Assembly: GCA_043729555.1 (NCBI GenBank) | Contig: JAYTLG010000280.1 | Location: forward strand, 1 to 18,241 | Length of the DNA: 18,241 nucleotides | Source of the DNA: Cytophaga sp. | Lineage (GTDB): Bacteria; Bacteroidota; Bacteroidia; Cytophagales; Cytophagaceae | Direction of reading: 5' to 3' | In this document: positions 153 to 18,241 of the stretch, piece by piece | Layout of the letters: each line of letters begins with the position of its first letter | Numbering within the stretch: the first letter of the stretch is position 1 | Position numbers and translations under genes: made by a program | Notes under the pieces: model-generated | Database searches by the model: none | Seen by the model: the letters and a program-made list of their open reading frames with translations, nothing else | Told to the model about the DNA's origin: nothing

Positions 153-1136
153 TCAATCTTTCGTCAATTGTTTTAAACGGCCTTGATACGACTGCCAATA
201 ATTTCTTTTCAGGGTATCATTGAGAAAAGAAACAGCTACCATTTTTTCTACGCTATCGGACTGTGATAACATTACAGACATCATGTCCTTAAACATCTTT
301 TCACTGACTCCTATATGCTCTGCAAGTAGTGAAAATTGTTTACTCGTTTTCCCTTGCGCTAAATTTTTAGGCAATAGTCCGTCTTCCAATGCAAAATCTT
401 TATCATCTATGTGCATTCGACTATTCAGCAAGTCATATGCGGGACTTAGTCTGTAATCTCCCATAGGAGTTTCGAGCAAAGAAAAGTTTTTTAAATGTGC
501 ATCTCCATTTGAAAATAAATAATTAAAGACAAGTATTTTTAACAGCTTCGGTGCTTCTAATTTATAAGCAGGTAAATGCGTTTGCATTAATTGAAACAAC
601 GCTAAATAATTTCCTGCATACTTATAATGTTCACCATGAGTTTGTGGTGTTCTTCCAGCCAAAGATGCAAAATCATCTTGCGCTCGTTTTGTACCATCTT
701 CATTTACATCAAAGCGCTTGGTTATGTAAGCAGGTGTTCCATCTTTAAAAAAGATCAATGCATTTTCAGCCGTTTCTATTCCATATACCTGACGTGCAAT
801 TTGCATCGTGAGGTGTTCGTTAGCTGGCATTTGATCTGCATTTTTACCAGCATCGGGAATTGGTTTCAAAATATACGTTCCGCGTTCACCTTCCTTTATA
901 AGCCTTAACTTATTCTTAACTAATAATACAGAAAACTTTTCCTGTACTCCTGAAATAGACATGCGATTTCTGTTTTCTTCAAAAAGTTCATCGGTTTCAG
1001 GATTGGATGCTGGTGAATCGTAAGGCAATACATGATACACCTTCTTACTCTGAAACACCCTGTTCAAGCAGGTTCTACTGTAGGTGTCAAAACCTGCTGC
1101 TAAGGTGCCGGGGCAATATTTTATTTCAGGTATCAT
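153..1136 (-). CDS. hipT: HipA-family Ser/Thr protein kinase toxin (C-terminal kinase module only, HipT-like), 327 aa
   Basis: Gly-rich loop MSISGVQEKFS: an S-x-S arrangement as in HipT, rather than the single-Ser loop of HipA. Catalytic motif FSNGDAHLKNFSLL and Mg-binding LSPAYDLLNS are present. The HipA N-subdomain is absent here and encoded by the separate upstream ORF. Stop codon is TGA. Confidence 0.8.
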   Translation of the reverse strand: MIPEIKYCPGTLAAGFDTYSRTCLNRVFQSKKVYHVLPYDSPASNPETDELFEENRNRMSISGVQEKFSVLLVKNKLRLIKEGERGTYILKPIPDAGKNADQMPANEHLTMQIARQVYGIETAENALIFFKDGTPAYITKRFDVNEDGTKRAQDDFASLAGRTPQTHGEHYKYAGNYLALFQLMQTHLPAYKLEAPKLLKILVFNYLFSNGDAHLKNFSLLETPMGDYRLSPAYDLLNSRMHIDDKDFALEDGLLPKNLAQGKTSKQFSLLAEHIGVSEKMFKDMMSVMLSQSDSVEKMVAVSFLNDTLKRNYWQSYQGRLKQLTKD

Positions 1137-2364: not shown

Positions 2365-4224
2365 ATGAAACACCTTATTTTATTTTTTCTACTGTTCATT
2401 GCATTGTCAAGTAATGCTCAAATCCCTAATCCTTTTCATCGAAGCGTAGAAAGTCTGGCAAATAAATTTAAGAAACAATATCCTGACGACAGTACAAGAA
2501 CCGTAGCGATATACGATTGGATTAAGAGCTATATGCGCTATGATTTAAGAGCCTTCGAGAAATATAAATTTAAAGTAAATAGTTATTCATTAAGTAAAAT
2601 CTTGTACAGAAGAAAAGCACTGTGCTTTGGCCTCTCCAAGCTGTTTCAAGACCTATGCCTTCGGTCAGGCATTAAATGCGTACAACTTCAAGGCTATGCA
2701 TTTGAAGATCCAAATGATCCTTACATACATTATTACTACGACAACCACGCATGGAACACCGCTAGTATCAACGGGCACTGGTATTTGTTTGATGTAACCT
2801 ATGACAACGGTTTCATTAAAAAGAAAAAAAGAGTTATTCGAAAGTTTTTAAACAAGACCTTCTCTATTCCTCTATTGTATGAAAAAACAAAATATATTCA
2901 CCAACCAGCAAACCGGTTTTCATTTAAGTCAGGAGCGCAATTTATTCATTCTCATTATCCTGTCTTAATTAATGGGGTGTTGATCAACGATAAGGTGAGT
3001 ATAGCGTCATTTGCAAAAAATGAGGTAAGCGTTTCAGGAGACTATAATCCTTCTTCTTATCCGAACATGGCTCAACTGTATGACTTTGCTGGTTCCAACG
3101 AGTCTATACAATTAAAAATAGCGGCAGACCAATCGGCACTCTTCAATCCAAAAAACAATTTAATAAAGACGGTTAATTACCATAATTCACTATTTCACTT
3201 CAACAAAATAAAAAGCAATTTTAACAAATCAGATGTAGATACGGTCATAAAGTATGCGGCATTATTCAAACGAGACAATACCGCTCTTCATTCAAAAAAC
3301 AGTAAACGAGTAAGCGACGAACATAAAAGTTTATTGGCCTCATTAAACAAAGCCTTAAGCCACAATGAACGACTTGCCATTCAGTACAACAAAAAAGGAA
3401 TTCGGGGCATTACTAAACTAGCCAAAACAGCAGAAGCCAATGCAATAAAATCGAATAAGATTGAAGAACGCCAGTTAAAATTAGAAGAGCATCTGGCCGG
3501 ATCTAGAAAGAAAAACGACACCATTCCTTTTCCTACACATTTAGTACAGCACAAAAAAACAGTAGCAACAGGAGACAGTCTATTGTTTACCTTGAACAAA
3601 GCCAATGGTGTATTGGATAGTTTAAGCATGCGATCTGAAGAATTGTTTAATTCGACTTATCACTTATTAAAAGAAAGAGTAATGTTATTGAATGCACACA
3701 GAGCAGGCGACATGAACCTTAAAACGTATCCAAAGCTGAGTGTCGTCGCGTCTGATATTGATTCCGTAACAAGTTTAATTGATCGCTATAAAACGCAAAT
3801 AGATAAAACAGAATATGAATACAATAAAGTGAGACAACAAGCGATACGAAATGCAACGAGTGGCTTTACATTGACCAGTAAGGAATATATAAAAACACAA
3901 ACAGGTATTTCTGTGCCTCTGCCCTATTCAAAAGACACGTTGGTGGCTGAGTTATTTGTGCGCACGAATGCTTTCAAAGAAGCATTGGTAGTATTTTACC
4001 ATCATGACGAAGAAATAGCAAATACGCAAACCTCGCACTACCTCTCCGCTGCAAAGTTTTTAAAAGGAGAAAAGAAACTTATTCAAAAAACAATTGTAAT
4101 GAGACAAATGGCTTATAGCTGCAGAATCAATCACGAGAACCGTCGTTACAAAGCCTATGACAACTATGTCTTCAGTATTGCCAATAGCATGAGGATGTTG
4201 AAAATGAGTTATAAGAGAAAATAG
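2365..4224 (+). CDS. Secreted transglutaminase-like (papain-fold Cys protease-like) domain protein with long K/N-rich C-terminal region, 619 aa
   Basis: N-terminal signal peptide MKHLILFFLLFIALSSNAQ. Transglutaminase-core triad context: KALCFGLSKLFQDLCLRSGIKCVQLQGY (Cys), DNHAWNTA (His), GHWYLFDVTYDNG (Asp). About 450 aa of low-complexity Lys/Asn-rich sequence follow. Stop codon is TAG. Confidence 0.7.
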   Translation: MKHLILFFLLFIALSSNAQIPNPFHRSVESLANKFKKQYPDDSTRTVAIYDWIKSYMRYDLRAFEKYKFKVNSYSLSKILYRRKALCFGLSKLFQDLCLRSGIKCVQLQGYAFEDPNDPYIHYYYDNHAWNTASINGHWYLFDVTYDNGFIKKKKRVIRKFLNKTFSIPLLYEKTKYIHQPANRFSFKSGAQFIHSHYPVLINGVLINDKVSIASFAKNEVSVSGDYNPSSYPNMAQLYDFAGSNESIQLKIAADQSALFNPKNNLIKTVNYHNSLFHFNKIKSNFNKSDVDTVIKYAALFKRDNTALHSKNSKRVSDEHKSLLASLNKALSHNERLAIQYNKKGIRGITKLAKTAEANAIKSNKIEERQLKLEEHLAGSRKKNDTIPFPTHLVQHKKTVATGDSLLFTLNKANGVLDSLSMRSEELFNSTYHLLKERVMLLNAHRAGDMNLKTYPKLSVVASDIDSVTSLIDRYKTQIDKTEYEYNKVRQQAIRNATSGFTLTSKEYIKTQTGISVPLPYSKDTLVAELFVRTNAFKEALVVFYHHDEEIANTQTSHYLSAAKFLKGEKKLIQKTIVMRQMAYSCRINHENRRYKAYDNYVFSIANSMRMLKMSYKRK

Positions 4225-4300
4225 TTGAAGTGAAAAATACTTACGCAATACTACTAACATTTCCTTCTTGAAGCATTATTCATGCTTTCTTTATTCCTTC

Positions 4301-4366: not shown

Positions 4367-6271
4367 TTACTTCTTGCCCTCACTTTTCTTAGGATCCATC
4401 ATCTCCATTAACTTCAACCCTAATAAGCCATCCATCGCAGTTCCATTACTGTTGGTACCTCCAATTAAAACATCAGGTATTAATTTAATGTGTCCTTTCG
4501 CAAGCTCCTCCGTGATTTTATACCTCGTAAAGTTTTCACCTCCTAGGGCACTTACAGCAAGTTCGTATGCTTCCGCTGTAGATTTACCGATTGCAAGTAT
4601 TTTGCCTGCTTCAGCACTACCCGTTAACGATATTTGTTCTGCTTGCGCAGATGCTTTTAATTTAATCGCTTCAGATTCTGCTTGAGCCCTTGCTTTCGTA
4701 GCTTCTGCTTCTGCAAACGCACGTAATTTCGTGGCTTCCGCCTCTGCACCTACGGCTAGCTTCACTCCTGTAGCATCACCTTCCGCTTTCTTTACGGTTG
4801 CATTTGCAGTTCGCTCCGCTATCTCTACACTTTGTTGAGCTTTCACAATATCCTTTTGCATATCTGCAATGGCCGTTTCCTTCTCCATTCCTTGGCGGGT
4901 TTCTTGCGCTTTTTTCTGCGTGTCGTAGGTTACTTTTTGTTCTTCTGCAATTTTACGATCTGTCAACGTTTTCATCAACGATTCTGGAGGTACGATGTCG
5001 CCTATCAAAGTATCAACGGCATTCACATTGTATTCATCCAAAACTTTTTTGATGTGCTCCTTCGCTGATTCTTGTCTTTCTTTTCTCGTACTTAGGAATG
5101 CAATCACATCACTGTCTTGCGCAGAGTTACGAAAATAATTTCCGATGGTAGGTTCCAATACTTGCGACACTAAGTTTACCATATTCCCAAATCGCGCAAT
5201 CACTTTCGGAGCCTCAGTGGTAGGAACATGTATGATTTGAGCAACGTCTAAGTTGAAAGGGAAACCATCTTTTGAACGTACCGTAATGGTTGAAAGATTC
5301 TTATCAAGGTTGTGCGCTTCACTGCGAGCAGAAGCCCAATTGAGTACAAGGTTAGTGGTTGGCACGAGTTCAACTTTCATAATGTATTTATTGACAGGAT
5401 ACTTACCAGGTCCTAAAGGCTGCAGCCAAACCCCTTTGAATCCTTTTTCAACGATGTTGCCATGTTTGAAATCAATACCTGTAAGGTCACTTCCTTCTTG
5501 GCCTATGTATGAAATTACAACACCAACATAACCGATAGAAATTTCCGTCATTGGAATTTCTTCAATTTGTACCGCCCAATAATTTAAGTTGTATGAACCA
5601 GCAAGAATTACCTGAGGCTGCAGTCCACGATTACCTCCATTAGCGATGAATTTATCGAAATCTTGAAAATTGTTATGGTCTTCTACTAATTTACCTGCGA
5701 TCTGCCCAGCTTCAATAGGCATACCATCTAAGGTAGTTACTATGCCTACCATGCTTTCTTGAATACGAATCATGTCCGTTACAGAAACTTGAAACAACAT
5801 GGTGTTGATTCTGTAAGAACCCGCTGTGATGTATGTTGCTTGTCTTCCTCTTTGTCCTCCACCTAATAAAAATTTTGTTGCATCTTGAAAGTTGTCACAT
5901 TCCACTCGCAGTCCTAGAATGTTTCCTGTTGGAATTTCACTTCCGTCTTTCGCCATAATTAAACCGATTTTACCTTCTGGAATAATGGTAAAACTTTCCA
6001 TGGTGACATCAAATTGCCATACCCATTTCCAGAAATACAATCCTGGAGCCAGTGTTCTAGATTGAAAACCCGCTTCACCATTGGTTGCGATAATACGTCC
6101 ATCTTGCAATTCTTTATTTGCTCCAAACAAAACAAACTGTTTCGTAACCAGTCCAACTTTATCTTCTGGAACAATAACAACACCGAAGAAAAAACGAAGT
6201 ATGTATTTATATAAAATAATACCGATGATTACGATTGCGATCCAACCGTAACTTAAAAGCACATGTCCCAT
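4367..6271 (-). CDS. Flotillin-family (SPFH/band-7, YqiK-like) membrane protein, 634 aa
   Basis: N-terminal TM segment WIAIVIIGIILYKYIL, SPFH-type core, and a C-terminal Ala/Glu-rich repeat region (AEAEATKLRAFAEAEATKARAQAESEAIKLKASAQAEQ) typical of bacterial flotillins. Stop codon is TAA. Confidence 0.8.
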   Translation of the reverse strand: MGHVLLSYGWIAIVIIGIILYKYILRFFFGVVIVPEDKVGLVTKQFVLFGANKELQDGRIIATNGEAGFQSRTLAPGLYFWKWVWQFDVTMESFTIIPEGKIGLIMAKDGSEIPTGNILGLRVECDNFQDATKFLLGGGQRGRQATYITAGSYRINTMLFQVSVTDMIRIQESMVGIVTTLDGMPIEAGQIAGKLVEDHNNFQDFDKFIANGGNRGLQPQVILAGSYNLNYWAVQIEEIPMTEISIGYVGVVISYIGQEGSDLTGIDFKHGNIVEKGFKGVWLQPLGPGKYPVNKYIMKVELVPTTNLVLNWASARSEAHNLDKNLSTITVRSKDGFPFNLDVAQIIHVPTTEAPKVIARFGNMVNLVSQVLEPTIGNYFRNSAQDSDVIAFLSTRKERQESAKEHIKKVLDEYNVNAVDTLIGDIVPPESLMKTLTDRKIAEEQKVTYDTQKKAQETRQGMEKETAIADMQKDIVKAQQSVEIAERTANATVKKAEGDATGVKLAVGAEAEATKLRAFAEAEATKARAQAESEAIKLKASAQAEQISLTGSAEAGKILAIGKSTAEAYELAVSALGGENFTRYKITEELAKGHIKLIPDVLIGGTNSNGTAMDGLLGLKLMEMMDPKKSEGKK

Positions 6272-13303: not shown

Positions 13304-13460
13304 CTTACTATACTCTTGCAGGCGAAAGCTTTTAGCTTGTGCCTTTTATTTTTAGAGCGTATCGCTCGGTGTTTATTGTGTTATAGTATGTTCGAGCTAT
13401 AAGCTCTATATCCCGAAGTCTCGGGATAGACAAAAGATACTCTTGCGCCAACAGATCTGA

Positions 13461-13664
13461 CGCGGATGTTACGAAGGATCATCCGTGACATACACTAAAA
13501 CTAATATTAACAATATCGACTTTAGGGATCTGCGATCCCTACCTCAATTTAAATATAAAAATAAAACACCATTATCAATGTATGGATTGCAAATCCATAT
13601 GCACATTGCTACACTTTATTACTTTGTGGTAAATGGCACGGATGATCCTGCGGAACATCCGCGC
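13461..13664. repeat. Mirror-symmetric array of four GGAT/ATCC-cored palindromic sites bounded by a 27-bp inverted repeat
   Basis: IR-L cgcggatgttacgaaggatcatccgtg (13461-13487) versus IR-R cacggatgatcctgcggaacatccgcg (13638-13664): 25 of 27 match when reverse-complemented. Internal perfect 19-bp palindromes tagggatc-tgc-gatcccta (13523-13541) and tatggatt-gca-aatccata (13581-13599). Site centres at 13474, 13532, 13590 and 13651 (spacings 58, 58, 61 bp), symmetric about roughly 13562. Confidence 0.6.
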
Positions 13665-13688
13665 CATTTGTGTAATTATTTATTATTT

Positions 13689-14870
13689 CTAATTTCCATT
13701 TTCAAACATTGGCAACTCAATCGTAAATATTGTTCCTTTGTCTTTACCTTCACTATTTACTTTTACGTTTCCTCCGTGCCTTTCTGCAATTTCTTTGGCA
13801 ATCCATAAACCAAGTCCCGTAGACACTTCATTGCCTGTCGGTTTAGCACTTAACTTACTAAACTGCTTAAAAGCATTATTCATATCCTCAATCGTCATTC
13901 CTTGCCCATTATCTTTTACTTCTAAAATTACTTTTTCTCCTTTTTTCTCTAAAAGGACAGTAATGTCTTTGCCGCTTGGCGAATACTTAATAGCATTACT
14001 TAAAAAATTATCTATCAATTCTGACAACCTTGTTTTATCTCCATGAACAAGTATATTCGTCTCTACTGAACTTTCTATTTTCTGCTGTTTTTTTGATGCT
14101 ATTACCTTATTAGTTGATATTACTCTGTTAGTAAGCTCGGAAAGATCAAAAGACTCAAATCTATAAGGAATATCTTTTGACGAATTTACAGCATGCCTTA
14201 AAAAACTATCTACTGCCTGTATGCTTTTATCTGCGAAAGATTTTATCATATCCCCCATTTCTTCTACCTCATCAGGATTTCCTTTTTGCTCTTTTATTAA
14301 ATCTACTAAATAAGGGATGTTGCAAACTGCACTACGGACATCGTGAGTTATCATATAAGCCATTTTATTTTGTGAATTTATTGCCGAACGAGCCATTAGA
14401 CGCAATTCTAACTGCTCAATCACAACATAGGCTAAATCTTCTAATATCTGTTGTTCCGTATTATTTAGGGTTCTTGGCTTTTTGTCAAGAACGCAAAGCG
14501 TCCCCAAGTTGAAACCGTCAGAGGTTGTTAAAGGAACTGCTGCATAAAATCTTAATCCAAATTCACTTGTTACTAATGAATTTCTAAGTGTTCTGGGGTC
14601 TTTTAAAGCATTTTCTACCATTTAAAAATCCTTAGAAAAAATAGCTGATGCACATAGCCCTTCTTCTCTTGGTATTTGCTGAACATTCAAGCCAAATGCT
14701 GACTTAAACCAAATTCTATCAGTATCTACTAAAGAAACAATAGCAATTGGTACGTTTAATAACTTTGCTACTAATTTTACTATACGGTCGTATGTTCCAT
14801 CTGGTGGAGTATCCAAGATCTCAAACTTCCTTAGTGTTTCTAATCTTTTTATCTCTGTTTCTGTTGTCAT
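13689..14870 (-). pseudogene. GAF-sensor histidine kinase interrupted by one in-frame TAA (ORFs 14622..14870 and 13689..14621 share a frame)
   Basis: The 82-aa upstream ORF is the N-terminal half of a GAF domain (LETLRKFEILDTPPDGTYDRIVKLVAKLLNVPIAIVSLVDTDRIWFKS). The 310-aa ORF continues it (ENALKDPR...GLRFYAAVPL) into a HisKA-like H-box (ITHDVRSAV) and HATPase_c (DNGQGM, GLGLWIAKEIA). TAA at 14624..14622 is followed directly by ATG 14621..14619 (TAAATG). Confidence 0.7.
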
Positions 14871-14888: not shown

Positions 14889-15000
14889 CTAACGGATAGC
14901 GTGTTGTAGACGGTGCAGGAGTTAAAGCTCTTCACTGCACGCTAGTACCGAGGGGAGCCATGGGCTTATCTTTGCGTAGCCAAGCCCATGGCGATTAATG
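14889..15000 (+). repeat. Copy 1 of a ~115-bp repeat family (5' box ctaacggatagcg, 3' hairpin gccatgggctt...aagcccatggc, tail gcgatta)
   Basis: Aligns with the copies at 17023 and 17987. Hairpin 14957-14992 has an 11-bp stem. Sits 19 bp upstream of the GAF-kinase ATG at 14870, directly adjacent to the left inverted repeat of the transposase unit. Confidence 0.7.
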
Positions 15001-15010
15001 GCTCCCCACT

Positions 15011-15729
15011 GGCGCGAGCATCCTGCTCGTGCCCAAAGCACATAGAGCGTCCCGCTCGGGCATCCTATAACATTGCAAGACAAGAAGCCACTTTTGCCCT
15101 GCATGATCTCTTGCGCTACTGTATAGCCATTCTTCTGGCTACAATACAAATCCTGACGTTACAGGATTCATGTGAATATAATTCATTTTTTGATAAAACA
15201 CCTCATCACTAAATAACTCTATGGGATGATTGTGTTGTTCCCAAAATTGAAAGTCTTTTGTATTTGAATTATGTTTTCCGGCATGTCTCATCAACCACAA
15301 CAACCATCTTTTTCTACTTTCTTACGTATTGCTTTCTGCTTCCAGCATCGTATGAAAAACACGAGAGATATAACCTTTTAAATTTCTTATAGTTTCACCT
15401 AAATTGTCAGGTGCTGCTGAACGCAAGATCAAATGAATGTGACTGGTCATGATACAGTACGCATAAACTTCCAGTCCATTGTTTTGCTGGTAATGTTTTA
15501 TGGCATTAAAAAAGACTTCTTTGTATTCGTTTCGAATAAAAAAATCGATCCAATCGATAACAATGAAGGTGACAAAGTGGGCATGACGATCTGCTCCGAA
15601 GCGATATTTTCTACTCATAAAAAATAATTTAAAAAATGTTCTTCAAATATAATGAATGGCATTGTCTTATTCAAGTATCCCCGCGCGGGACGCTCTATAT
15701 ACTTGTGGCACGAGCAGGATGCTCGCGCC
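15011..15729 (-). mobile_element. RAYT/IS200-like Y1 transposase unit flanked by 50-bp GC-rich inverted repeats (REP-like)
   Basis: Left IR 15011-15060 (ggcgcgagcatcctgctcgtgcccaaagcacatagagcgtcccgctcggg) and right IR 15680-15729 are 45 of 50 identical when reverse-complemented. Each IR contains two GC-rich imperfect hairpins (ggcgcgagca-tcc-tgctcgtgcc; cccg-ct-cggg). They enclose the transposase gene with 78-bp and 61-bp gaps. Confidence 0.65.
15139..15618 (-). pseudogene. IS200/IS605-family (REP-associated, RAYT-like) Y1 HuH transposase with in-frame TAA at codon 99
   Basis: The 98-aa ORF 15322..15618 carries the HuH motif (CIMTSHIHLIL). Continuing by hand in the same frame past TAA (15324..15322) gives 62 more codons: ESRKRWLLWLMRHAGKHNSNTKDFQFWEQHNHPIELFSDEVFYQKMNYIHMNPVTSGFVL, ending at TAG 15141..15139. 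The catalytic-Tyr motif YIHMNPV resembles the RAYT YIxxNPV context. The full length of 161 aa is typical of Y1 transposases. Confidence 0.7.
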
Positions 15730-15767
15730 AGAAAGGGCTATTTCAATGTCGTTCATCAGCCCTTGTG

Positions 15768-16964: not shown

Positions 16965-17022
16965 TGGACTTATTTAGTCGTTAGATTGAATTGTTATGTT
17001 ATTGCGTCTACCGCCATTGCAC

Positions 17023-17176
17023 CTAACGGATAGCGTGTTGTGGTCGTTGCAGGTGTTAAAGCTCATCACTTCACTTTAGTAACGAAGTAAGCCATGGGCT
17101 TATCTTTGCGTAGCCAAGCCCATGGCGATTATTGGCTCTGCTGTTTACTCTAGCAGAATACCTGCACTGACAACAA
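17023..17176 (+). repeat. Copy 2 of the repeat family, with extended tail cctgcactgacaacaa
   Basis: 5' box at 17023; hairpin 17091-17126, identical in sequence to the copy-1 hairpin. It fills the spacer between the 52-aa ORF stop (17194) and the PAS-kinase ATG (16964). Confidence 0.7.
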
Positions 17177-17193
17177 TGTTAGGCACAGTGCTT

Positions 17194-17926: not shown

Positions 17927-17986
17927 CTGATTTTAAGCAAATTTAGTCAAAAAATACGATAAATGCTCTGTCGGCTAACATTGCCC

Positions 17987-18140
17987 CTAACGGATAGCGG
18001 CTTGTGGTCGGTGCAAGTGTTAATGCTTTAATGATTACTTTACTATTGAAGTAAGCCAAGGGCTTATTTTTGCGAAGCCAAGCCCTTGGCGATTAATAAC
18101 AATATAGTTTACTTCACTACGAATCCTGCACTGACTACAA
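17987..18140 (+). repeat. Copy 3 of the repeat family (diverged), with tail cctgcactgactacaa
   Basis: 5' box ctaacggatagcg at 17987. Hairpin 18055-18090 is gccaagggctt...aagcccttggc, i.e. t-to-a and a-to-t changes relative to copies 1 and 2 that preserve the base pair. About 60 bp upstream of the zeta-like ATG at 17926. Confidence 0.65.
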
Positions 18141-18241
18141 ACCGCTGTTGAACTAACACCCTTTGGGTGAACAATCCAACCCAATCTACTAAATTCACGC
18201 TACATTTTAAACTATTAACAATGACTACTATTAAAAAAACA

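Follow-up and report, generated by a model that had tools for sequence, protein, structure and literature searches.

In an 18,241-nucleotide (nt) stretch of a Cytophaga sp. contig (JAYTLG010000280.1), hereafter the window, a small transposase gene interrupted by a stop codon lies between two GC-rich inverted repeats, at positions 15011 to 15729. This locus raises the question of whether the gene and its repeats form a repetitive extragenic palindrome (REP) system, with a REP-associated tyrosine transposase (RAYT), or an ordinary insertion sequence (IS) of the IS200 type, and whether the gene can still make a working enzyme. The answer that we consider best, with a probability of roughly 0.88, is that the cassette is a decayed REPtron of a Bacteroidota-specific RAYT lineage, namely TnpA-REP subclass 2.6 (RAYT group 5). 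The original unit comprised an upstream REP arm, the gene for a 184-amino-acid (aa) Y1 transposase with a HuH (histidine-hydrophobic residue-histidine) motif, and an inverted downstream REP arm. In each arm, a 10-base-pair (bp) hairpin that has a CT(G/A)G foot and a conserved G.T wobble precedes a smaller second hairpin.

The gene itself, a RAYT pseudogene resembling TnpA-REP subclass 2.6, occupies positions 15065-15618 of the minus strand. Translation from the ATG at 15618-15616 gives an open reading frame (ORF) of 98 aa (MSRKYRFG...TSHIHLILRS...ESNT) that ends at the TAA at 15324-15322. In the conceptual translation, the HuH motif (H60-I-H62, within SHIHL at residues 59-63) lies ahead of this in-frame TAA and the catalytic Tyr147, in YIHMNPV, lies beyond it. 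The original prediction had placed the two motifs on opposite sides of the TAA and had concluded that the 98-aa ORF would lack the nucleophile, and both points agree with the translation. Past the TAA, homology continues in the same frame (ESRKRWLLWLM...FQFWEQ...MNYIHMNPVTSGFVL) up to a TAG at 15141-15139, and beyond that TAG, after ..SGFVL, it resumes as PEEWLYSSARDHAGQK (PEEWLYSSARDHAG). The single internal TAA noted originally is therefore present, but the damage is greater than had been described. Protein alignment with relatives showed that the TAA (15322-15324, minus strand) replaces a conserved Tyr at residue 99, and DNA comparison with the closest orthologue, in locus L001, gave acgTATgaa there against acgTAAgaa in the window. 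The TAG (15139-15141, minus strand) replaces a conserved Gln at residue 160, by the same protein alignment; the codon is CAA in L001 and CAG in a second close orthologue, in locus L016.

The third lesion is a 1-nt deletion somewhere within positions 15082-15099 of the minus strand, found by comparing the 3' end of the gene with that of L001. Between the AG codons and the terminal L-A-(M/V)-L-stop there are 17 nt in the window and 18 nt in L001. In the shifted frame, CTT GCA ATG TTA TAG reads LAML-stop at 15079-15065, with the TAG at 15065-15067, whereas the final eight residues of the unshifted frame do not align, the normal stop is lost and the frame runs into the left arm. Because homology passes the TAG and the deletion shifts the frame of the C terminus, the ancestral product was 184 aa, not the 161 aa of the conceptual protein proposed earlier. 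The gene ancestrally held 184 codons plus a stop, its present 554 nt equal 185 codons minus 1 nt, and intact close relatives are also 184 aa, the best of them being 84% identical. Since two nonsense codons and a frameshift leave at most a 98-aa fragment, in which the HuH motif is present and the nucleophile absent, the gene is inactive.

The exact 98-aa product was found on six contigs, four of which we compared (three European Nucleotide Archive assemblies and one Logan run). The 921-nt cassette region was 100% identical over its full length in three contigs and over the 773 nt contained in the short Logan contig. Sequencing or assembly error as the origin of the lesions was excluded by this identity among four separately assembled contigs, which probably represent one population. 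Twelve other ORFs in the window, ranging from 82 to 1527 aa, contain no internal stops and end in TAA (6), TAG (5) or TGA (1). Stop reassignment or an alternative code was excluded as well, given that TAA, TAG and TGA all close full-length neighbouring ORFs; the standard genetic code applies because neighbouring genes end normally at TAA and TAG.

Decay is not unusual in this RAYT family. An in-frame stop in an otherwise full-length match occurred in 4 of the 80 best loci from relatives (L030, L040, L058 and L084), and further broken secondary RAYT copies are also present, for example a second copy in L022 with an in-frame stop. This L022 copy (4787-5103 of that locus) is frameshifted and stops at the same Tyr99 codon as the window gene. 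A conserved programmed in-frame stop was considered and rejected: L022 is the one other pseudogene that shares the Tyr99 stop, which was treated as a coincidence, and the stops of the other family pseudogenes are scattered (positions 23, 31, 68 and 123). The paralogue in L073 (6666-7355) carries, after its residue 45, an insert of some 49 codons, four of them stops, that interrupts the gene. The insert may be a repeat inserted within the gene, as has been reported for subclass 2.4.

In order to place the protein, we compared it with family models, homologues and structures. Pfam returned the general Y1_Tnp family alone (PF01797, IS200-like; 34.3 bits, cutoff 23). When queried with the protein carrying X at both stops and including the frameshifted tail, the NCBIfam model REP_Tyr_transpos (NF047646) scored 84.1 bits and passed its cutoff of 80, while the IS200 model (NF033573) scored 22.6 bits and failed its cutoff of 55. 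A search found 967 homologues, the named ones coming from Cytophagaceae, Chitinophagaceae (metagenome-assembled genomes, MAGs), Rufibacter, Catalinimonas, Flavipsychrobacter and similar Bacteroidota. These sources, Cytophagaceae and Chitinophagaceae MAGs among them, are consistent with the Bacteroidetes-like setting that had been read from the window. A profile built from 20 homologues had its best PDB match in 4ER8, the E. coli TnpA-REP (E = 1.4e-6), ahead of the ISDra2 TnpA (E = 1e-4); a PDB search with the single sequence could not tell RAYT (E = 0.013) from IS200 (E = 0.02). Both phmmer and hmmsearch aligned a C-terminal extension, NPV..G.V....W.[YF]S[ST], with residues 92-137 of 4ER8 chain A. 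YSS lies at residues 166-168, and Ser167 and Ser168 are invariant. No tnpB-like ORF was present between or beside the arms. Assignment of the protein to the RAYT/TnpA-REP type of Y1 transposase rather than to IS200 TnpA is thus supported, in line with the original prediction of a REP/RAYT-type system and not an ordinary IS200 TnpA.

The repeats that bracket the gene have a common plan. Positions 15011-15060 match the reverse complement of 15680-15729 at 45 of 50 sites, exactly the count first reported, and a repeat finder extended the inverted repeat to 58 nt at 88% (15009-15066 and 15674-15731). From the outside inward, each arm has a pyrimidine-rich foot ending in CTGG, hairpin 1, a 9-nt spacer and hairpin 2, of the form TAGAGCGTCCCGC(T/G)CGG. 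The upstream arm is in gene sense (15674-15736, minus strand) and consists of the foot CCTTTCTGG, hairpin 1 (GGCGCGAGCA-TCC-TGCTCGTGCC, 15707-15729), the spacer and hairpin 2 (TAGAGCGTCCCGCGCGG, 15681-15697). The downstream arm is inverted relative to the gene (15004-15066, plus strand) and has the foot CCCCACTGG, hairpin 1 (15011-15033), the spacer and hairpin 2 (TAGAGCGTCCCGCTCGG, 15043-15059); at the inner end, this arm and the ancestral stop codon overlap. The stem of hairpin 1 is 10 bp long, its fourth pair being a G.T wobble, and this outer 23-nt unit is identical in both arms. Hairpin 1 recurs nowhere else in the window, even when three mismatches are allowed, and 200 shuffles yielded no match at all. 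The foot has the form (C)CT(G/A)G, as in CCCCACTGG, CCTTTCTGG and CCCCGCTGG, and is not the canonical GT[AG]G.

Each arm had been described as containing two GC-rich hairpins, and folding of the arms as single-stranded DNA indeed gave two hairpins apiece (z-scores for the repeat-sense strand, -3.8 and -4.6). Fold energies were -15.7 and -18.2 kcal/mol on that strand compared with -13.9 and -15.7 kcal/mol on the complement. The better folding of the repeat-sense strand fits a wobble on one strand that turns into an A-C mismatch on the other. When the whole window was scanned against Rfam at E <= 1, only two chance-level matches appeared, and neither the arms nor the nearby repeats were assigned to a known RNA family. 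Between the upstream arm and the ATG lies a leader (15619-15673, minus strand) that is conserved with the L001 orthologue (GGGGATACTTGAATAA...). About 30 nt ahead of the ATG the leader holds TATATTTG, which presumably fits the Bacteroidetes -7 promoter consensus that we take to be TAnnTTTG; a sigma-70-like match at 15674-15646 reached only 9 of 12 positions.

Metagenome contigs scanned with the family alignment yielded 80 loci, 69 of which have at least 150 nt on both sides. In 65 of these 69 loci the inverted repeats in the flanks outscored every shuffle, and almost all were of the type CT(G/A)GCGC(G/A)AG...CT(C/T)GTGC. We then counted REPs under a strict definition (a CT[AG]G foot, no fewer than 8 bp of unbroken stem and one G.T or more) in 82 loci totalling 716 kb. 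Upstream REPs were in gene sense in 41 cases and opposite in 2, downstream REPs were inverted in 42 cases and not in 3, and on both sides together REPs face the gene in 83 of 88 cases. Both arms were present in 29 loci. When the wobble requirement was dropped, 83 of 98 correctly oriented flanking hairpins kept the G.T. Among 30 distinct short-loop variants, two-sided changes occurred at eight of the nine stem pairs, such as the replacement of G-C by A-T in the pair below the foot and in the fifth pair, and the G.T pair was kept in 28 of the 30, although this set had been chosen by a scanner that requires a wobble. Inverted REP arms around the gene are the rule across the family.

Published classifications divide the Y1 transposases into subclasses, of which subclass 2.6 is RAYT group 5 of Bertels 2017 (PMC5581495) (Quentin 2018, PMC6006769). 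Its proteins have about 179 aa, the motifs NH[LIV]H, WQ and YIH[QN]NP and an SS tail, and come mostly from Bacteroidetes (Table 1, PMC6006769). Its genes have, at their flanks, atypical secondary structures without GT[AG]G, the foot typical of the canonical subclasses 2.2, 2.4, 2.5, 2.7 and 2.8, and copies of these structures occur elsewhere in the genome (PMC6006769). Members of the subclass are few in each genome (mean 1.8) and do not duplicate as an IS would. The 16-mers flanking group 5 genes occur about 31 times per replicon (Bertels 2017, PMC5581495). The REP type listed for the subclass is GCT[GA]GCGCGAGC...GCTCGTG(CC), with examples from Spirosoma linguale (GCTGGCGCGAGCATATGCTCGTGCC, i.e., GCTGGCGCGAGC-ATAT-GCTCGTGCC), Aequorivita (GCTAGCGCGAGCGTCCCGCTCGTG), Flexibacter litoralis (CTGGCGCAAGGTTCTACCTTGTGC) and Zobellia (GCTAGCGCTCGTATTTTACGAGTGCC) (Table S1, PMC6006769).

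The window cassette shares with this subclass a protein of about 180 aa, the HuH motif, a Trp motif, YIHxNP, an SS-bearing C-terminal tail and a Bacteroidetes host, together with gene-flanking hairpins that lack GT[AG]G and may have copies elsewhere in the genome. The REPs agree closely: CTGGCGCGAGCATCCTGCTCGTGCC of the window and GCTGGCGCGAGCATATGCTCGTGCC of S. linguale coincide in the foot and in all nine stem pairs and differ in the loop alone, as is seen when GCTGGCGCGAGC-ATAT-GCTCGTGCC is set against (A)CTGGCGCGAGCA-TCC-TGCTCGTGCC. Foot and stem are likewise shared with GCTAGCGCGAGCGTCCCGCTCGTG of Aequorivita. The window copy differs in being a pseudogene with two nonsense codons and one frameshift, in belonging to a clade with SHIH and YIH(M/L)NP instead of NH[LIV]H and YIH[QN]NP, and in its bipartite arms, in which hairpin 1 is joined by a second hairpin (TAGAGCGTCCCGCTCGG). 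Bipartite arms were seen in the closer relatives from Cytophagales and Chitinophagales and not beside the Flavobacteriales copies.

Likeness to the E. coli TnpA-REP (4ER8; subclass 2.2, RAYT group 2), with its REPs and bacterial interspersed mosaic elements (BIMEs), is more distant. Both are Y1 HuH enzymes with inverted REPs built as a hairpin with a 5' foot, and the C-terminal NPV..G.V....W..S region aligns. However, similarity is weak, as the E values given above for the single sequence and the profile indicate, the foot is CT(G/A)G and not GTAG, a G.T wobble stands where E. coli has a bulge, and the window family has about 20-30 extra residues between the HuH and Tyr regions. With the TnpA of the IS200/IS605 family (IS608, ISDra2; PDB 2XM3), the window protein shares the Y1 HuH fold family PF01797 and an alignable HuH region. 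It differs in failing the IS200 model and in its greater length with a C-terminal tail (184 versus about 130-150 aa), and the locus differs in having inverted repeats as flanks and no tnpB beside the gene. The system also recalls the REP doublets known as REPINs (Bertels and Rainey 2011, PMC3116915), in that gene-less inverted doublets of these arms exist in L010 and L016 and a REP-like doublet lies in the window. The doublets here are larger (about 190-245 nt) and have bipartite arms, and at least one seems to have come from the gene cassette by internal deletion.

The REP unit also occurs away from the gene in other genomes. The exact 23-mer of hairpin 1 has 18 occurrences, spread over 15 loci of 13 GTDB species genomes with one to three exact copies each; the genomes include Maribacter, Arenibacter, Myroides, Chryseobacterium, Flavobacterium and MAGs of Chitinophagaceae and Cytophagaceae. 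In nearly every case CCCC(G/A)C(G)CT precedes it, and in only 2 of these 15 loci, each 8 kb long, is a RAYT also present. In the 82 loci searched under the strict definition, 21 REP copies lie more than 300 nt from the gene. A gene-less doublet in L010 has 53-nt arms that match at 89% and stand 136 nt apart; doublets are also found in L008 and L013, and L015 holds tandem copies. L016 (Cytophagaceae MAG, JAQZBV010000027.1) encodes a RAYT 76% identical to that of the window and has seven more REP copies in the 4.2 kb upstream. In one gene-less inverted doublet there (4059-4252), the left arm is followed by the reverse complement of ATGTTGTTATAA, which corresponds to the last RAYT codons and the stop. 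This arrangement suggests that internal deletion within cassettes gives rise to doublets. L001 and L016, the loci of the close orthologues, have unrelated gene neighbourhoods and the same arms.

The breadth of the 23-mer is notable. REP sequences are usually lineage-specific, and this identical hairpin spans three classes of Bacteroidota (L002-L015). Such breadth could reflect strong constraint or horizontal spread.

By analogy with the E. coli TnpA-REP and the IS608 TnpA, the intact enzyme would bind the hairpin and its 5' foot on single-stranded DNA. Cleavage would occur next to the hairpin through a 5'-phosphotyrosine link, with Tyr147 and a metal bound by the HuH motif, and rejoining of strands would then spread or rearrange REP units. 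Several points weigh against assigning the cassette to a subclass 2.6 REPtron. Cleavage at a CT(G/A)G foot is a prediction. The clade of the window, with SHIH, WE or WQ and YIH(M/L)NP, departs from the subclass 2.6 consensus: the window protein has SHIH, WE and YIHMNP and its close relatives SH[IV]H, WQ and YIH[LM]NP. Distant homologues recovered by the same searches carry the consensus forms, NHIH in P0073 and Y[ILV]HNNP in, for example, P0080, L030 and L040. Membership was judged from the published description and REP table. The covariation set was picked by a hairpin scanner, which makes 100% pairing true by construction; information comes only from the two-sided changes and from the orientation bias. 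Finally, REP copy number and any intact paralogue could be assessed only within an 18.4-kb metagenome contig (k141_219066 of ENA assembly ERZ27314285, with near-identical copies in ERZ28573533 and ERZ27315200); the intergenic DNA of the window amounts to 3.4 kb of 18.2 kb.

Three other explanations were weighed against the decayed REPtron. The cassette could be the decayed remnant of an ordinary insertion sequence of the IS200/IS605 family, an autonomous element equipped with subterminal hairpins, whose transposase is not REP-associated. Pfam, which gives only the general Y1_Tnp family, would allow this; the same arms in the unrelated neighbourhoods of L001 and L016 look like mobility of a whole cassette, and the gene-less doublet of L016 keeps the last RAYT codons, as an IS deletion derivative would. 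We nevertheless regard it as improbable. With 22.6 bits the protein stays far below the IS200 cutoff of 55 but clears that of the RAYT model, and its 184 aa include a C-terminal extension of RAYT type, alignable with 4ER8. In IS200/IS605 elements the hairpins at the ends are on one strand, whereas here true inverted repeats stand across non-palindromic spacers, REPs face the gene in 83 of 88 cases and the hairpin is found away from any transposase gene in many genomes.

It would also be conceivable that the gene still functions, its TAA and TAG being read through or being assembly errors and its frameshift being bypassed. The 84% amino-acid identity to an intact orthologue, the perfect state of both hairpin-1 copies, the in-frame TAA of a neighbouring GAF kinase gene and the identical Tyr99 stop of the second pseudogene in L022 lend this some colour. 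Against them stand three independent lesions of two kinds, the same sequence in four separately assembled contigs, 11 other full-length window ORFs ended by TAA or TAG with no long ORF containing internal stops, and the scatter of stops (23, 31, 68 and 123) among the other pseudogenes of the family, which together make a functional gene very improbable. Least probable of all is that the arms are regulatory hairpins of the host, such as terminators or stabilisers of mRNA, with no functional tie to the gene that they happen to flank. REPs act as terminators and stabilisers in other bacteria, and hairpin 2 of the left arm scores terminator-like on the minus strand. However, the same footed hairpin stands on both sides of a homologous gene in a fixed inverted orientation in dozens of unrelated contigs, its stem covaries between loci while foot and wobble are fixed, and the published description of subclass 2.6 says the same (PMC6006769). 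The decayed REPtron of subclass 2.6 therefore remains our preferred explanation.

Other repeats lie in the intergenic DNA of the window, and the original prediction had proposed the gene as a plausible source of dispersed hairpin repeats nearby. Only the smaller hairpins at 13304-13688 and a few decayed GCTGGCG units resemble the arms; a set of large 165-nt repeats is unrelated to them in sequence. A solitary bipartite REP unit lies at 13318-13369 on the plus strand, with a variant hairpin 1 (GGCGAAAGCT-TTT-AGCTTGTGCC) that keeps the G.T and a hairpin 2, TAGAGCGTATCGCTCGG. It was the sole extra unit found by nhmmer with a model of eight arms (13319-13369, E = 0.011, model positions 3-53); its hairpin 2 matches with 0 mismatches, where 0.09 matches were expected by chance, and its fold z-score is -4.0. 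A REP-like inverted doublet follows at 13451-13673, with GACGCGGATG..CATCCGTGAC at 13459-13489 and GGCACGGATG..CATCCGCGCC at 13635-13665. Its 50-nt arms are 78% complementary and 123 nt apart, the right arm has a fold z-score of -6.2, and the doublet and hairpin 1 have the stem base G(G/A)CGCG...CGTG(C/A)C in common. The same spacer holds an inverted hairpin-2-like unit at 13392-13408 and three more small hairpins. The arms and these related nearby hairpin units are REP copies. We infer that they are either fossils or substrates handled in trans by a copy elsewhere in the genome.

As a whole, the 385-nt intergenic region at 13304-13688 contains eight small hairpins of several kinds and resembles a BIME-like cluster. 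Some of these hairpins, such as TGGATTGCAAATCCA at 13583-13597, resemble the REPs listed for subclass 2.6 genes of F. johnsoniae and B. xylanisolvens (Table S1, PMC6006769). Four intergenic sites match the consensus GCTGGCGAAAGCTT, which was derived post hoc, with at most one mismatch, where 0.00 were expected, and a fifth matches with two; all are on the plus strand. The nhmmer arm model misses these relics, which are too diverged for it, and they look like decayed REP units, though with weaker support than the others. Units of the type GCTGGCG(A/G)AAG(C/T)T at 2214, 7334, 12494, 12593 and 13318 are all plus-strand and intergenic. The genes around them run along the minus strand, in DNA whose GC skew is negative throughout. 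Their placement on one strand may be a strand bias, in what is a small sample.

The 165-nt repeats are structured elements of about that length, with three copies on the plus strand that resemble one another at 79-89% (17022-17185, 17985-18150 and, truncated, 14889-15004). They have imperfect terminal inverted repeats (CCTAAC..TTGT.GTC.GTGCAGG), no Rfam match and fold z-scores of -4.4 and -5.0. In the central hairpin, GCCATGGGCTT...AAGCCCATGGC, pairing is kept through a two-sided change in copy 3. Every copy sits 19-60 nt upstream of a minus-strand gene start, and the repeat was not found in the other collected loci. It could be an element resembling a miniature inverted-repeat transposable element, or a leader RNA. 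That these repeats are REPs spread by the RAYT gene was rejected, since no sequence is common to them and the arms. Copy 1 breaks off at the very point where the left REP arm starts; a simple insertion of the cassette into this copy is unsupported, as its missing 45 nt were not found beyond the right arm.

Elsewhere in the window, the GAF-histidine kinase gene at 13689-14870 (minus strand) is split by an in-frame TAA at 14622-14624 into ORFs of 82 and 310 aa; the cassette lies between this gene and one for a PAS kinase. The Pfam GAF domain covers residues 24-149 of the fused kinase product and straddles this TAA, and the kinase gene is a second broken gene less than 1 kb from the RAYT pseudogene. 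A perfect 16-bp palindrome, TGCATTGAATAGTGCT-ATATAA-AGCACTATTCAATGCG, lies at 1803-1840 in the intergenic region 1725-2365, and a terminator-like hairpin, ACTGCCCCCAAA...TTTGGGGGCAGT, lies at 60-96, downstream of a gene at 153-1136 (minus strand). No tRNA genes were found in the window.

By itself the locus matters little. The arrangement of a RAYT with repeats in Bacteroidetes is already known (PMC6006769, PMC5581495), and the window copy is an ordinary, decaying member of a published class. For annotation, the 98-aa ORF becomes a pseudogene fragment, and the GC-rich hairpins of this AT-rich contig become REP units and not regulatory elements. The survey of relatives yielded as by-products a compact description of subclass 2.6 REPs (a CT(G/A)G foot, a G.T wobble, a covarying stem and an inward-facing orientation), which could serve automatic REP/RAYT annotators for Bacteroidota, and hints that cassettes lose their gene by internal deletion. 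The sections of the published work drawn on here catalogue REP sequences and do not describe this consensus, the wobble or cassette mobility. The exact 23-mer is common to Flavobacteriia, Cytophagia and Chitinophagia. It is possible, although we would sooner expect otherwise, that the subclass 2.6 system uses a distinct, phylum-wide recognition code, made up of the CT(G/A)G foot, the stem base GCGC...GTGC and an invariant G.T, and that the arm-gene-arm cassette moves as a unit and sheds gene-less doublets by internal deletion. If such cassette mobility were true, these RAYTs would be closer to active insertion sequences than are the domesticated, immobile RAYTs of Proteobacteria.

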